NCBI GenBank assembly: GCA_017528205.1
Contig: JAFXPE010000032.1
Location: 145,986 to 209,985 of the forward strand
Source of the DNA: Alphaproteobacteria bacterium
GTDB lineage: Bacteria; Pseudomonadota; Alphaproteobacteria; RF32; CAG-239
Reading direction: 5' to 3'
DNA length: 64,000 nt
Every line of letters begins with the position of its first letter. Within the stretch, counting starts at the first letter, position 1. This document shows positions 15,124-59,167 of the stretch, in pieces. The notes beneath the pieces are model-generated. The model was not told the DNA's origin and did no database searches. It saw only the letters and a program-made list of their open reading frames with translations. The position numbers and the translations under genes were made by a program.

Positions 15124-15151
15124 TTGCAATTTAGCGTTGATACGCTAATAT
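15124..15151 (+). promoter_or_regulatory. sigma70-like promoter (TTGCAA-N16-TAATAT) of leader RNA copy 1
   Basis: -35/-10-like hexamers conserved in identical arrangement upstream of copy 2 at 58202..58229. Confidence 0.55.
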
Positions 15152-15155
15152 AAGT

Positions 15156-15308
15156 CCGTCGGCGAGAGGTCGTCGGCGGAGTGTAACGGCTCCTTATACT
15201 GTATTGACTCCTCTGCAATGGGGAGCCGGTTGAATATATTGAATAAACCGGACTGCTAGTATAACAGTCGTTAACTCCCCACCTTAAAGGAATTTAGGGT
15301 GGTTTTTT
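15156..15308 (+). ncRNA. structured leader/sRNA element copy 1 (unclassified), ending in an intrinsic terminator
   Basis: Conserved blocks shared with copy 2 (GAGAGGTCGT, GGGGAGCCGGTTGAATATA, ACCGGACTG, AACTCCCCACCTT.AAGGAATTT.GGGTGGTTTTT). The 5' hairpin 15156..15179 has compensatory changes between the copies. Terminator hairpin 15279..15302 plus T-run. Confidence 0.5.
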
Positions 15309-15340
15309 GTTGTGATATTAACAAAAGAGGAGTTACGAAA

Positions 15341-15568
15341 ATGAGAATAAAGAGTTGTTGTATGGATAAACAAACCATACAAGAAATCGGTCATCAACTA
15401 TGGCAAATGCGTCAAGAACGCAGAATGTATCTGCATACGGTATCTTTTCAAACCCGAATTCCCGAAAGAGTAATAGAAGGTATGGAAATCGGTAAGTTTA
15501 TTAAATATGCACCATTACGCTGTTTAATAGCGTTCTACGGTAAAAAGATGCGGATTGTTTTTGAATAA
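15341..15568 (+). CDS. small XRE-family helix-turn-helix protein (paralog 1)
   Basis: 76 aa; IGHQLWQMRQERRMYLHTVSFQTRIPERVIEGMEIG HTH core. Paralog of 58417..58644. Start 15341 preceded by an AGAGGAG SD; the ORF-track start 15299 lies inside the terminator. Confidence 0.7.
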   Translation: MRIKSCCMDKQTIQEIGHQLWQMRQERRMYLHTVSFQTRIPERVIEGMEIGKFIKYAPLRCLIAFYGKKMRIVFE

Positions 15569-15618: not shown

Positions 15619-17832
15619 TTAGCTCAAAGGAGCGTCCATTTCAAATCCGGCGCTGTCATCCTCTTCGGCGTTGTATTCAATGCCCAATTTGGCCAGCATA
15701 TCGTCATTAATATCTTCACGCTGTGCCACAATCCAATCCGGAACATTCGGGCAAGCAGGCAACTTCGCCAATTTGCTCATTCTTTTATCCAAATACCAAC
15801 GCGGAGAGTCGGCAATAATCGGGCGGTCGATATGGCTTTGCATCAACACCACTTGCTTTAACATCGGCAAACTCAACAGCTGTGTCGAGCTGATAACCGG
15901 AATGCCTTGCAACTGATAGTTAACGTTTTTCGCCAGCGGGTTAAAGTCTTTACCCAAGCTACCCTCTGTTCGTGAAAATGACGAAATACGCACGGTTTTG
16001 TTACCAATCATCTTAGAGAAACGTTGTGCCGTAACTTCGTTGTTTTGCGAAAGAATAACTTTGCAGGCGGTGGTAGAAATCACCGTTTCCAAATCATCTT
16101 TTCCGTATTTGCCGGAGATTTGGCCCAAGTCTTGTCCGATTAGCAAATAAGACACTTTTTGACCACGACCTACGGCCGGTCCGTCGATAATAGCTTTCAT
16201 CTTAGGCATTTGCGGAAACTCGTCGAGCACGAACAACGCAGGGAAAGGTCCCATTTTGCCGTCGGTACGGTTAACGTGATTCGGCGGATTGGAAATCAAA
16301 TAAGACGACATCAACTCAATAAAGGTAGAGCTGATAACGCCCAACGCACGCGCATCAACCTGGTTAACCGACAGATATACGGAAATCGGCTTCCATTCTC
16401 CGGTAACCGGATCTTTCATACCGCGCAAATCCTTAAACAACAAATCCGAAAAACTTGTCCGCGCTTTAACCGCTTGGTTCTTGAATACGTTAATGCCGGC
16501 AAATGCAGTAGAAAGAATGGAACCGCGCTCTTTATCCGGAGTGTTGCTCAAGGTGCTCAATTCCGTAATGCAACGCTGAGCATAACCATAATTACGGGCT
16601 TCCTTAATTGCTTCTTCAAGCATATCTTTAGTCGGGTCGGCCATGGCCGCCATCTGATCGCCTTCGTCCAAACGACGTTGAATTTCGTGAGCGGCGTTGA
16701 TTTGCGCCTCCGTAATCCATTCCATAATCATGGCAATGCAAGCCTCACGTCCCATCCAACGCGATGGCAGCAAATTCCACGTTCCGATAGGTAGATAATT
16801 TTCCATGGTCAGTGTGCCGTTTTTCAAATTTTGTAAAGCACGTTGAACTCCCGGATCACGCATATCCATATAATAACCTTCGAGAACTTCCTTATCTTTT
16901 TCATCAAGCTTGCCTTCATAAATGCGGCCGATAAAATAATCGTTGGCACGGGCACGCTCACATTTGGAAACCACAAATTGAATAAATCCGGTTAAGGCTG
17001 CACGACCGGTTTGTGACCAGTGCGGATCGGCGCCGCCTTTCGGATCTTCAACCAAAATGTTACACATGGAATCCACATACATATCGCGGTCCGGACCTTG
17101 TTCCGGAATACAGCTCGGCGACAGCGGGTTCCAACTCGGATAATAAATGCCTTCACTCGGATTATCTTCTGCACCCCAGTTAATGATAAACACCGGCCCC
17201 ACTTTGGCGCGAGCACCCGAAGTGTTATAACAAAGCTCCGGTTTCGGGTCGTTAATCACCAAACTGAGCTTGTCGGAATTGAAAATCGTCGGAATCACCA
17301 CGCCGGCGGTTTTACCGGTACCAGGAGGTGCGCAGCACAGCGTGGCCAAGGTTTCTTTTAACATTAAAAATTTGCCGTCAAACTTGCCGACAACCTGGCA
17401 GAAACCGTCAAAACCCAACAGCGACATTTTCTTAATGTCGCGCAAATCGGCAATTTTGGCCTGACCTTGATAGTTAACCTGAAACTTATACGGACTGAAA
17501 ATGGCGCTGACAATCAAACCGAGCGGAATGGTAATAAACGGCAACAGCGGAATCCACAAACTGAGCGAAAACCCGCCTTGGTGATTCCACAGCTGATGTC
17601 CCCATTTTCCATACATGGTAAACAAGTGATTAGGATCTCTGGCAATAAGCGCCAAAAACTTCTGAATGACATCGGTTGAGGACTTAGAAACGCCGTGTCC
17701 CACCAAATAAGAAAGCGGTAGGGCGAAAATAAATAAAATTATGCTTAACACAAGGCAAATCAAGAAAGTTACCGTCATCCACCTGACGGCTTTGTCATAT
17801 TCTTTCCATTCTTCACCGCGATCGTTTGCCAT
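15619..17832 (-). CDS. type IV secretion/conjugation coupling ATPase, VirD4/TraG/DotL family
   Basis: Two N-terminal TM helices, Walker A LCCAPPGTGKTAGVVIPT, Walker B ALFVLDEFPQMP, conserved IGQDLGQI..GK region, acidic C-terminal tail; 737 aa. Confidence 0.8.
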   Translation of the reverse strand: MANDRGEEWKEYDKAVRWMTVTFLICLVLSIILFIFALPLSYLVGHGVSKSSTDVIQKFLALIARDPNHLFTMYGKWGHQLWNHQGGFSLSLWIPLLPFITIPLGLIVSAIFSPYKFQVNYQGQAKIADLRDIKKMSLLGFDGFCQVVGKFDGKFLMLKETLATLCCAPPGTGKTAGVVIPTIFNSDKLSLVINDPKPELCYNTSGARAKVGPVFIINWGAEDNPSEGIYYPSWNPLSPSCIPEQGPDRDMYVDSMCNILVEDPKGGADPHWSQTGRAALTGFIQFVVSKCERARANDYFIGRIYEGKLDEKDKEVLEGYYMDMRDPGVQRALQNLKNGTLTMENYLPIGTWNLLPSRWMGREACIAMIMEWITEAQINAAHEIQRRLDEGDQMAAMADPTKDMLEEAIKEARNYGYAQRCITELSTLSNTPDKERGSILSTAFAGINVFKNQAVKARTSFSDLLFKDLRGMKDPVTGEWKPISVYLSVNQVDARALGVISSTFIELMSSYLISNPPNHVNRTDGKMGPFPALFVLDEFPQMPKMKAIIDGPAVGRGQKVSYLLIGQDLGQISGKYGKDDLETVISTTACKVILSQNNEVTAQRFSKMIGNKTVRISSFSRTEGSLGKDFNPLAKNVNYQLQGIPVISSTQLLSLPMLKQVVLMQSHIDRPIIADSPRWYLDKRMSKLAKLPACPNVPDWIVAQREDINDDMLAKLGIEYNAEEDDSAGFEMDAPLS

Positions 17833-57877: not shown

Positions 57878-58195
57878 ATGACACAACCTTTAACAGACAG
57901 CCAGTTTGGCGAAAACGTATTAAATGCCAAAGGACTGGTGCTGGTGGATTTTTGGGCCGAATGGTGCGGACCATGCCGTCAGCTCGGACCGATTTTGGAA
58001 GCAATCGACAACGAAATCGGCAGTGATGTGAAAATATATAAGATGAACGTTGATGATTCGCCGCAAATTGCCGGACAGTTGGGGATTCGCAGTATTCCGA
58101 CCATGTTTTTGTTCAAAGACGGTAAGCAGGTTGATGTTAAGGTTGGATTAAATACCCAATCTAACATTCAAAGCTGGATTCAGTCTTATAAATAA
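57878..58195 (+). CDS. trxA: thioredoxin
   Basis: WAEWCGPC active site; 105 aa. Confidence 0.9.
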   Translation: MTQPLTDSQFGENVLNAKGLVLVDFWAEWCGPCRQLGPILEAIDNEIGSDVKIYKMNVDDSPQIAGQLGIRSIPTMFLFKDGKQVDVKVGLNTQSNIQSWIQSYK

Positions 58196-58201
58196 AAAAA
58201 C

Positions 58202-58229
58202 TTGCAATTTGCTGCAAATACTTTAATAT
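58202..58229 (+). promoter_or_regulatory. sigma70-like promoter (TTGCAA-N16-TAATAT) of leader RNA copy 2
   Basis: Same hexamers and spacing as copy 1. Confidence 0.55.
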
Positions 58230-58234
58230 TAACT

Positions 58235-58382
58235 CCGCAGACGAGAGGTCGTTTGCGGAGTTTCACAACTCCTCTCTTGAAATAACTCCTCTTAACGGGG
58301 AGCCGGTTGAATATACCGAATAGACCGGACTGACAAGAGCAGTTGTGAACTCCCCACCTTGAAGGAATTTGAGGTGGTTTTT
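58235..58382 (+). ncRNA. structured leader/sRNA element copy 2 (paralog of 15156..15308)
   Basis: Same conserved blocks; 5' hairpin 58235..58258 with compensatory substitutions relative to copy 1; terminator hairpin 58353..58376 plus T-run. Confidence 0.5.
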
Positions 58383-58416
58383 GTTTTTAAATTAACAAAA
58401 TCAGGAGTTCAAAACA

Positions 58417-58644
58417 ATGGGAAAATATGAATATTTTGTAGATAAAGAAACCCAAAAAGAAATCGGACACGAATTGTGGAAAATACGTCAGGAAAAACGC
58501 TTGTTGTTGCATCAGGTGCAAAGCAAAACGCATGTTCCAGAGCGGATTATTGATGGCATAGAAATCGGCCGTCATCTTAATTACGGAATGGTACGCAAAC
58601 TCATTAAATTTTACGGCAAGAATATGCTGGTGGTATTTGAATGA
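58417..58644 (+). CDS. small XRE-family helix-turn-helix protein (paralog 2)
   Basis: 75 aa; IGHELWKIRQEKRLLLHQVQSKTHVPERIIDGIEIG; AGGAG SD. Confidence 0.7.
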   Translation: MGKYEYFVDKETQKEIGHELWKIRQEKRLLLHQVQSKTHVPERIIDGIEIGRHLNYGMVRKLIKFYGKNMLVVFE

Positions 58645-58662
58645 AAAATGTCATATAACAAA

Positions 58663-58696
58663 AACGCCGCCCGAAAAGGCGGCGCTTTAATTTTTA
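58663..58696. terminator. bidirectional intrinsic terminator (HTH gene + / rplQ -)
   Basis: GCCGCC-cgaaaa-GGCGGC with flanking T/A runs. Confidence 0.7.
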
Positions 58697-58708: not shown

Positions 58709-59167
58709 CTATTTGCTTTCAGAGCTTTCGTTTTCTGCTTTTTCAGCTTCGGCAGCAGCAGCTTTTTCTGCGGCAACGCGAGCCAAATCTTTAGCGCCTT
58801 TGGCATTAACATCGCGGTCAACCAATTCGATAATCGCCATCGGAGCGCAATCGCCGTAACGGAAACCGGACTTCAAAACGCGAGTATAACCGCCGTTGCG
58901 GTCTTTATAGCGTTCAGCCAAAGTAGAGAAAAGTTTAGAAACAACTTCATTGTTGCGTAAAAAACCGGCGGCAAGGCGACGGCTGTTCAAATCACCTTTT
59001 TTGGCATATGTAATCATATTGTCGGCAAAAGTTCTTAATTCTTTGGCACGAGTTAAAGTGATTGTAATTTGTTCGTGTGTCAACAACGCAGCTGTTAAAT
59101 TAGAGAACAAAGCTCTTCTCTGACTTTTCGGCATACTGAATTTTCTATGTGCATCACCATGTCTCAT
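58709..59167 (-). CDS. rplQ: 50S ribosomal protein L17
   Basis: MRHGDAHRKFSMPKSQRRALFSNL, the typical L17 N-terminus; acidic/Ala-rich C-terminal extension. Confidence 0.9.
   Translation of the reverse strand: MRHGDAHRKFSMPKSQRRALFSNLTAALLTHEQITITLTRAKELRTFADNMITYAKKGDLNSRRLAAGFLRNNEVVSKLFSTLAERYKDRNGGYTRVLKSGFRYGDCAPMAIIELVDRDVNAKGAKDLARVAAEKAAAAEAEKAENESSESK

Follow-up and report, generated by a model that had tools for sequence, protein, structure and literature searches.

Architecture of the module

The window analysed here, a stretch of 64,000 nucleotides (nt) of contig JAFXPE010000032.1 (assembly GCA_017528205.1, an alphaproteobacterium of the RF32 lineage), carries at positions 58202–58644 a compact module, referred to below as copy 2, in which a promoter is followed by an RNA of ~150 nt, an intrinsic terminator, a GGAGUU ribosome-binding site and the gene for a 75-amino-acid (aa) helix-turn-helix (HTH) protein of the XRE family. 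All of these elements are located on the forward strand. The promoter (58202–58229) is composed of the −35 hexamer TTGCAA (58202–58207) and the −10 hexamer TAATAT (58224–58229), separated by a 16-nt spacer. The structured portion of the RNA spans about 58235–58353, a ~120-nt stretch with several helices. A terminator scan places the intrinsic terminator at 58354–58388, with a hairpin of 9–10 bp (58354–58377) and the U-tract UUUUUGUUUUU (58378–58388). The Shine-Dalgarno sequence GGAGUU follows at 58404–58409 (GGAG at 58404–58407), and the open reading frame (ORF) of the XRE-family protein runs from the ATG at 58417 to 58644.

A paralogous module, copy 1, lies 43 kb away on the same strand (15124–15568), with the −35 hexamer at 15124–15129, the −10 hexamer at 15146–15151, the RNA at about 15152–15319 and the HTH ORF at 15341–15568. 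The original prediction, made from the letters of the window, had given both copies the same architecture and had put the identity of their HTH proteins at about 50%. The listed elements are indeed all in place, the two modules align end to end over their full length with identical promoter hexamers and spacing, and the measured identity of the proteins is 54%. The window contains the 19-mer GGGGAGCCGGTTGAATATA at two positions only (15220 and 58297), a count reached by none of 100 window shuffles. Both RNAs fold better than their shuffled counterparts, with z-scores of −6.2 and −5.3.

Distribution of the RNA family

Only six close relatives of the copy-2 protein are present in a collection of 5.8 billion clustered proteins, and their contigs carry the same RNA upstream, in contexts that include after atpF (locus L001), beside eno (L002) and after marC. 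A scan of one genome per species with the rumen pattern GGGGAGC-N5-GAATATA-N2-GAATA returned 84 stretches, ~70 of which belong to metagenome-assembled genomes (MAGs) of uncultured Alphaproteobacteria from the rumen or ruminant gut (RUG, RGIG, UBA3307, UBA2723 and 'Rhodospirillaceae' in the NCBI titles). A covariance model built from 75 distinct rumen copies detects 85 copies in 27 rumen alphaproteobacterial assemblies, with a maximum of seven in one (incomplete) MAG; copy 2 scores 166.1 bits against this model and copy 1 scores 161.8 bits. The pattern was also matched in Bacillota (Lactobacillus, Lachnospiraceae and others) and on one Candidatus Opimibacter contig; these matches were discarded as chance, as none scores with the covariance model. 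These include L031, L053 and L083 (Lactobacillus) and L013, L033 and L067 (Bacillota), several of which, by reading alone, apparently fall within coding sequence.

A second pattern was derived from a human-faecal contig with three tandem, diverged copies, the record of which stands unverified in a phage collection. This gut-variant pattern has at least 120 matches in metagenomes, and many of these fall in named human-gut assemblies. Among the matches listed, the rumen-built model scores 114 variant copies in 80 loci (25–117 bits), mostly from the human gut, and up to five RNA-only units occur in tandem at a spacing of ~255 nt. Arrays of three to five such units are found in L178 (6563–7776), L100 (350–1303) and L167 (9–704), each unit with its own TTGCCA...TAATAT promoter and its own terminator; the units retain an A-tract and a GGGAGUG box with no ORF after them. 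Tandem RNA pairs are also present in the rumen loci L010, L044, L051, L055 and L075. One 25-bit model match, at L021 3583–3826, looks like an unrelated leader and was set aside.

Far from standing alone in the window, the two copies have hundreds of orthologous or paralogous counterparts in relatives. As far as sampled, the hosts of the family are uncultured Alphaproteobacteria of the rumen and the human gut only, organisms of whose regulation almost nothing is known. With at least about 200 copies, this is a large and well-supported structured RNA family that is absent from Rfam 15: the whole window gave no matches at the gathering score, a search of the RNA region at E values up to 10 gave nothing on the RNA, and four gut-variant loci gave no matches at E values up to 0.1.

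Secondary structure and covariation

In the minimum free energy (MFE) fold of copy 2, the RNA begins with the 5′ hairpin P1 (CCGCAGACGA-GAGG-UCGUUUGCGG, 58235–58258), the apical loop of which retains a purine-rich AGAG or GGAGG across the family. The long-range helix P2 pairs GGAGUU-U-CACAACU (58257–58270) with AGUUGUGAACUCC (58341–58353) and thereby closes the domain that follows. P3 (58274–58279 with 58334–58339) extends P2 and is highly variable. After an A-rich junction come P4, formed by CUCCUC (58286–58291) and GGGGAG (58297–58302; consensus CCUC with GGGG), and P5, formed by CCGGUU (58303–58308) and GACCGG (58323–58328; consensus AGCCGGnn with nnCCGG-A-CU). P5 is capped by the conserved loop GAAUAUAccGAAUA (58309–58322).

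The same five helices, with 36 pairs, are recovered by RNAalifold from the rumen set, where P2 appears as the closing helix GGAGU..UCGAAAC with GUUUCGA..ACUCC. For the 75 distinct copies of this set (A3), 95.4% of the alignment cells are paired as compared to 83.0% in column shuffles, and sliding the 3′ partners by one to three columns lowers the value to 32–47%. Both sides vary at 21 of the 36 pairs, and the covariation score was reached by none of 500 shuffles. The gut set (A4, 95 distinct copies) behaves alike, with 92.4% of cells paired (76.8% in column shuffles; 28–49% with slid partners), 24 of 36 pairs varying on both sides and again none of 500 shuffles reaching the covariation score; because it was aligned to the rumen model, this set is biased towards the rumen structure. 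Two-sided changes occur at all seven pairs of P1 in the rumen set and at six of seven in the gut set. P2 is paired in 99.1% of cells in the rumen set, and five of its inner pairs covary (for example UCGAAAC/GUUUCGA, UAACGGC/GUCGUUA and UAGCAAC/GUUGCUA). Covariation is strong in P3 and P5, and P4 shows two-sided changes in the gut set only.

The positions that are invariant or nearly so are unpaired ones: the A-rich junction before P4, the ACUG that follows P5 and the P5 loop GAAUAUA-nn-GAAUA. Gut variants have an inserted hairpin at the 'nn' of this loop, with a sequence that differs between copies (its pairing was checked by eye only). The conserved bases would thus face each other in an internal loop with the strands GAUAUAAG and CGAAUAA, which may resemble a UAA/GAN-type loop. 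We also considered a leader peptide, since some copies contain an ORF of 8 or 12 codons across GGGGAGCC...GAAUA; its start and stop codons are not conserved, and this candidate was rejected. The family is real and new, of a kind with one published precedent, and its structural support is strong.

Promoters and terminators

Only 8 of the 12 hexamer positions of copy 2 agree with the sigma-70 consensus, which left this promoter below the threshold of a generic promoter scan. Across the family, TTGNNN and TANNNT separated by 16 or 17 nt precede the RNA in 118 of 144 distinct upstream regions, mostly as TTGCAA or TTGCCA with TAATAT, and this arrangement stops a few bases before P1. The presence of an internal promoter, on which the original prediction depended in place of transcription from marC and trxA alone, is therefore a conserved property of the module. 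Likewise, each of the 75 distinct rumen copies has a terminator hairpin of −11 to −16.7 kcal/mol followed by a U-run, and these terminators comprise 47 different hairpin sequences. With covariation in two sets of sequences and a conserved promoter and terminator, the view that the RNA is a functional structured unit and not a chance fold has held up.

A separate feature of the upstream region is an inverted repeat, TTGC-N2-12-GCAA, that overlaps the −35 element in 25 of 144 distinct promoters (17%), where shuffled sequences would lead one to expect 2.4. Examples are window positions 58202–58219 (TTGCAatttgcTGCAA) and L044 (CTTGCTTttttAAGCAAA). It may be an operator for some of the paralogues.

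The linked HTH protein

At the rumen loci, nearly every copy of the RNA is followed by an HTH gene of one family, encoding 74–77 aa, with the ATG located 106–126 nt past the GGGGAGC core. The copies that lack this gene are at contig ends, are first units of tandem pairs or are among a few decayed copies. The gut set behaves similarly: for the 76 listed copies with enough 3′ sequence, the family HTH gene follows in 64 and another RNA unit in 12. The more distant XRE proteins P0047 and P0048, weak outgroup members, have no such RNA at their loci. Decay is illustrated by L081 (5170–5412, reverse strand), where the RNA is intact to P3 and then fused to the C-terminal half of the HTH protein (...QTGIPAKVIESMELGRS...); what has been lost is the 3′ part of the RNA together with the N-terminal half of the gene, and the model score is down to 63 bits.

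Taken singly, the copy-1 and copy-2 proteins match Pfam HTH_25 and HTH_3 below the gathering score (17.8 and 19.4 bits vs 24.6). Across the family, HTH_25, a RodZ-type domain, is matched by 23 of 26 members, HTH_31 by 13 and HTH_3 by 12, with best E values of 5 × 10−8 to 7 × 10−10 (5 × 10−8 for HTH_25). A family profile compared with structures in the PDB matches HigA, DdrOC, CylR2, C.BclI and SinR, with E values down to 2 × 10−7. Judged by these profile matches, the proteins belong to the XRE/Cro-C1 HTH superfamily (Pfam HTH_3 clan).

The ORF at L003 3001–3369 (as well as in L004 and L005), which lies between marC and virD4, extends to 122 aa, because one additional A in the run GGCAAAAAAAATG changes the reading frame shortly ahead of the usual ...GKKM.IVFE end, and it overlaps the 3′ end of virD4. 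This longer ORF reflects either a genuine allele with a frameshift or an error in the sequencing of the homopolymer.

The original prediction had further suggested that each RNA co-evolves with its own protein. This part of it is not borne out. RNA and protein distances correlate only moderately, with a Mantel r of 0.38, a value that lends no support because physical linkage alone would produce it, and many pairs of modules are discordant: 17 pairs differ by less than 8% in protein but by 15–28% in RNA, and two show the reverse. In UBA3307, several modules encode nearly the same protein next to different P2, P3 and terminator sequences. All paralogues have the same unpaired RNA core but differ in the recognition helices of their HTH proteins, and the divergence among paralogous RNAs consists of helix sequence with compensating changes. 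The pattern fits linkage together with recombination between the two parts, which would account for it in place of pair-specific co-evolution.

A predicted second conformation that would hide the ribosome-binding site

Folding of the module downstream of P5 indicates a second conformation on which the original prediction was silent. In the MFE fold of the 3′ domain, the last six bases of P2, AACUCC (58348–58353), pair with the Shine-Dalgarno sequence GGAGUU (58404–58409) to form a helix designated P6. In read-through transcripts, the U-tract UUUUGUU can additionally pair with the A-tract AACAAAA (58394–58400) to form P7 (58379–58400). When the 3′ domain from AACUCC to GGAGUU is folded in isolation, a three-way junction of P6, the terminator hairpin and P7 is the MFE structure for all 96 distinct sequences; when whole leaders are folded up to the start codon, roughly half of 53 modules pair GGAG with CUCC in the 3′ strand of P2. 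P2 and P6 are mutually exclusive because both use the same six bases. With either helix enforced, the predicted energy of the P2 state minus that of the P6 state has a median of +0.4 kcal/mol, and the two are within 2 kcal/mol of each other in 51% of 110 leaders. For the two window copies, the differences are +1.0 and +1.2 kcal/mol.

The complementarity of these elements is accompanied by some covariation, as assessed by reading of the folded sequences and from a partial table. The central pair of P7 is G:C in most modules, C:G in four distinct sequences (L126, L144, L173 and L174; GGUUUC with GGAAACC or AGAAACC) and A:U in L052 and L072 (UUUUAUUU with AAUAAAA), and P7 is retained despite an extra hairpin between the U-tract and the A-tract in, for example, L103. 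GGAGUU itself is nearly invariant across modules, whereas only 4 of the 27 remaining GGAG sites that precede long ORFs in the window (15%) read GGAGUU. A seventh pair, between the base that follows GGAGUU and the one that precedes AACUCC, could form in 33 of 41 distinct combinations. Complementarity within modules extends past the 6-bp core more than in shuffled pairings (reached by 59 of 5000 and 195 of 5000 shuffles), although the relatedness of the copies weakens this comparison.

The extra hairpin of the gut variants (L103, L105, L106, L112, L127 and others) is ~40 nt long (UUUUCGUC...GACGGCGAGAAUUUU) and lies between the two tracts, which makes the leader longer while leaving P7 and GGAGUU in place.

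A proposed doubly locked leader and its alternatives

From the covarying structure, the terminator, the linkage to the HTH gene, the complementarity of P6 and P7 and the predicted bistability, we propose, with somewhat more confidence than doubt, that the module is a doubly locked leader, closed by the terminator and by a hidden ribosome-binding site, that also yields an abundant short RNA. The sigma-70-type promoter would fire, and the P1–P5 domain would fold. Given the strength of the intrinsic terminator, most polymerases should halt there, and a short, stable RNA would accumulate. Only ~30 nt separate the U-tract from the ribosome-binding site of the HTH gene, which leaves no space for a promoter of its own, and the gene would thus be expressed only from read-through transcripts. 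On such a transcript, a closed P2 would leave the ribosome-binding site free for translation of the HTH protein. Opening of P2 would allow P7 to zip up and bring GGAGUU to AACUCC, so that P6 would hide the site. As the two states are near equal in predicted energy, stabilising or opening the P2–P5 domain would set translation; a small ligand, a protein or a further RNA could be the trigger. That RNA-only units occur in tandem, every one equipped with a promoter and a terminator, suggests that the short RNA may act in trans as well. Leaky or regulated termination, operation of the switch in cells, a trigger and targets for the HTH protein would complete this scheme.

Several observations weigh against the doubly locked leader. 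No antiterminator was found: the terminators are of several unrelated types, none complementary to the conserved core, and they overlap no conserved alternative pairing, so the scheme leaves the regulation of read-through unexplained. P6 is mostly invariant (GGAGUU:AACUCC), and its covariation comes from one flanking position in related, non-independent sequences. Any ribosome-binding site is inherently complementary to a CUCC stretch, and energy differences of ~1 kcal/mol fall within the error of the folding model. Some gut RNA-only units keep the A-tract and the GGGAGUG box in front of no ORF, which could reflect either a role of P6 and P7 other than hiding a ribosome-binding site or a recent duplication. 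Finally, the abundance of the RNA, the efficiency of termination and the extent of read-through are all deduced from sequence.

A metabolite-sensing riboswitch is a specific version of the trigger that the doubly locked leader leaves open. P2–P5 would be the aptamer, and binding of a ligand would stabilise P2 and free the ribosome-binding site, making an ON switch. The conserved, covarying fold is aptamer-like, its helices surrounding an invariant unpaired A-rich junction, a GAAUAUA..GAAUA internal loop and ACUG. The double use of the P2 3′ strand as an anti-Shine-Dalgarno strand is that of a classic translational expression platform, one that by prediction and limited covariation excludes part of the aptamer, and the two states are near isoenergetic. 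What makes us regard this reading as possible but unlikely is chiefly its genetic setting. The sole associated gene is a tiny XRE regulator that gives no hint of a ligand, in place of a coherent set of metabolic or transport genes; five to seven copies per genome, each before a paralogous regulator, and RNA-only units with their own promoter and terminator would be an unusual deployment; and the terminator is not coupled to the aptamer. In a broader and equally tentative form, P2–P5 might be an orphan aptamer of a new kind, or an RNA recognised by a specific protein, that responds to some signal in the gut or rumen and gates a bank of XRE regulators through the five to seven paralogous copies, with the terminated form, amplified in tandem arrays, acting in trans. 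If true, this would be a distributed RNA switch, with one signal and many regulators, seen so far only in uncultured gut Alphaproteobacteria.

The promoter, the strong terminator with its U-tail and the RNA-only arrays of up to five units (L178, L100 and L167), together with the rumen pairs, could also be those of a gene for a chiefly trans-acting small RNA, either a base-pairing regulator or a protein sponge, in which case the HTH gene would ride on leaky read-through and P6 and P7 would be incidental. The invariant loop could serve as a seed or a protein site, and trans action has been proposed for the Bartonella RNA Brt1 (PMC5387305). We nevertheless find this reading doubtful, as the RNA is tightly coupled, at a fixed distance, to one HTH family across two diverged subfamilies, and GGAGUU and the A-tract are conserved past the needs of an ordinary ribosome-binding site. 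Nor does the complement of the P5 loop have a convincing target in the window: it gives four matches there at up to two mismatches, including both RNA copies themselves, a number equalled in 4 of 100 shuffles and hence at chance level. An autoregulatory pair, with an HTH protein that recognises either the leader RNA of its own gene or a promoter operator and with co-evolution of each pair, seems to us rather improbable. XRE proteins commonly autoregulate at DNA, the excess of inverted repeats that overlap the −35 element points the same way, and the best Pfam match is to the RodZ-type domain; but the repeat is confined to 17% of promoters, the RNA core does not change among paralogues with differing recognition helices, and RNA and protein disagree in many pairs of modules.

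On a cursory look at the flanks, with no systematic search for terminal repeats, we consider it very improbable that the module is a selfish or mobile element, be it a type III-like toxin–antitoxin pair or a transposon guide RNA. It is multi-copy, close relatives of copy 2 occupy differing contexts (after atpF, beside eno and after trxA), and tandem RNA units, a terminator and a protein gene make up a ToxIN-like layout. However, the protein is a plain XRE HTH without a toxin, nuclease or recombinase domain, PADLOC gives only weak matches to HTH or controller proteins, every array unit has its own promoter and terminator, and six fetched loci share the gene order around copy 1.

Genomic context and mobility

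Copy 2 lies between the thioredoxin gene trxA upstream (57878–58195; Pfam E value 4 × 10−30) and the convergent gene for ribosomal protein L17, rplQ (58709–59167; Pfam E value 6.5 × 10−38). According to the terminator scan, a GC-rich hairpin at 58661–58688 acts on both strands as a two-way terminator common to the HTH gene and rplQ. Copy 1 is flanked by a MarC-family gene on one side and, on the other, by a convergent gene on the reverse strand (15619–17832) for a VirD4/TraG-type type IV secretion coupling protein of 737 aa. The order marC, module, virD4 is syntenic in L003–L005, L039, L049 and L062. The trxA–rplQ site of copy 2 was not seen elsewhere among the fetched loci, and the L17 gene of one gut relative has no module adjoining it.

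The original prediction had described the module as possibly mobile or duplicated. Mobility has gained no support, as a plasmid search gave no match to the module and the lone pattern match on a viral contig is not a member of the family according to the covariance model. Phage carriage was likewise rejected, since the only 'phage' record is an unverified faecal contig. This record (L099, 2654–3408; MT835910.1, 'UNVERIFIED: Bacteriophage sp.') has three tandem RNA units at the end of a 15.6-kb human-faecal contig, and the 205-aa ORF that adjoins them looks like a bacterial lipoprotein. It is probably bacterial DNA from a virome preparation.

Comparison with known systems

The design of the module recalls several known systems. 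It shares with translational riboswitches a covarying multi-helix domain with conserved unpaired bases and a closing helix that excludes a Shine-Dalgarno-sequestering helix of similar predicted energy. It differs from them in that no ligand is implied, an uncoupled terminator sits inside the sequestering junction, and the element occurs in many copies before paralogous regulators and in stand-alone units, with no Rfam family to which it belongs. Should a ligand bind to the conserved core, the family would constitute a new class of riboswitch, deployed in an unusual way; otherwise, the module would offer a clean model for dual-lock leaders and for the amplification of small-RNA genes.

Premature termination of SAM riboswitches before metabolic genes in Listeria gives rise to the small RNAs SreA and SreB (cited in PMC5387305). 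There, as is predicted here, a short terminated leader accumulates and may act in trans, and the full-length transcript encodes the regulated gene. The Listeria leaders are known SAM riboswitches, whereas the present family has a candidate sensor and a putative action in trans. Type III toxin–antitoxin systems of the ToxIN kind have a comparable series of promoter, RNA unit or units, terminator that sets the ratio of RNA to protein, and protein gene. In the present modules, the protein is an XRE HTH protein in place of an endoribonuclease, and the RNA units are independent and ~150 nt long, not short processed repeats. Searches with Pfam, NCBIfam and PADLOC revealed no ToxN/AbiEii-type toxin downstream of the RNA, only HTH-type matches.

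HTH_XRE is given as the commonest domain downstream of candidate RNAs of the human microbiome in the survey by Fremin and Bhatt (2021; PMC8040213). Signature strings of the present RNA do not occur in the searchable supplement files of that study (200 of 408), which leaves a prior listing of the family there neither confirmed nor excluded.

The closest parallel is found in Bartonella henselae, where nine abundant Brt RNAs (194–203 nt) each lie just upstream of a poorly transcribed XRE gene, trp, and where a dual role as a cis-acting, 'riboswitch-like' leader and a trans-acting small RNA has been proposed (PMC5387305). Brt RNAs were reported to be specific to Bartonella, with 2–34 per genome clustered in a plastic region of the genome (Tu et al. 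2016/2017, MicrobiologyOpen, PMC5387305). The likeness is one of layout only: in both cases, a multi-copy structured RNA of Alphaproteobacteria lies directly upstream, and on the same strand, of a small XRE HTH gene. The Brt RNAs are longer than the ~150 nt found in the rumen and gut, the Trp proteins have 108–152 aa as compared to 74–77 aa, the order of the helices differs, and no canonical terminator is seen directly before trp in the plasmid copy that was read. Moreover, the rumen and gut family is situated between core genes and in uncultured lineages.

For a direct comparison, the ends of Brt were rebuilt from the published primers (PMC5387305). The resulting query matches Bartonella plasmids only, and two plasmid copies were recovered (L090 and L091). 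The covariance model (R1) gives no match to either of these Brt-bearing loci even at E values up to 10. An hhalign comparison of the HTH family profile (A2) with one Brt-adjacent HTH protein of a Bartonella plasmid gives a probability of 0.3% (E value 0.19), with the HTH core alone in register. No homology to Brt/Trp is detected in these two comparisons. In the Bartonella plasmid RNA, a AACUCCCGG box has two possible partners, the CCGGGAGUU boxes upstream of it and the CCGGAGG ribosome-binding site, a toggle like that between P2 and P6. In L090 (1476–1700, reverse strand; Bartonella kosoyi plasmid pTLV-1), CCCGGAGUU, CCGGGAGUU and CCGGAGG can all pair with the single AACUCCCGG box, and a U-tract (GUUUUUGUU) is complementary to a later AAGCAAAAAG; the kinds of parts are the same and their order is another.

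As far as can be judged from this comparison, the rumen and gut family appears to work like Brt/Trp without being a member of it. The design of an abundant RNA and a silent XRE gene, reported as unique to Bartonella, would thus occur elsewhere with unrelated sequence, and the present family adds what the Bartonella work lacked: a secondary structure backed by covariation and a concrete candidate switch, P2 against P6 and P7.

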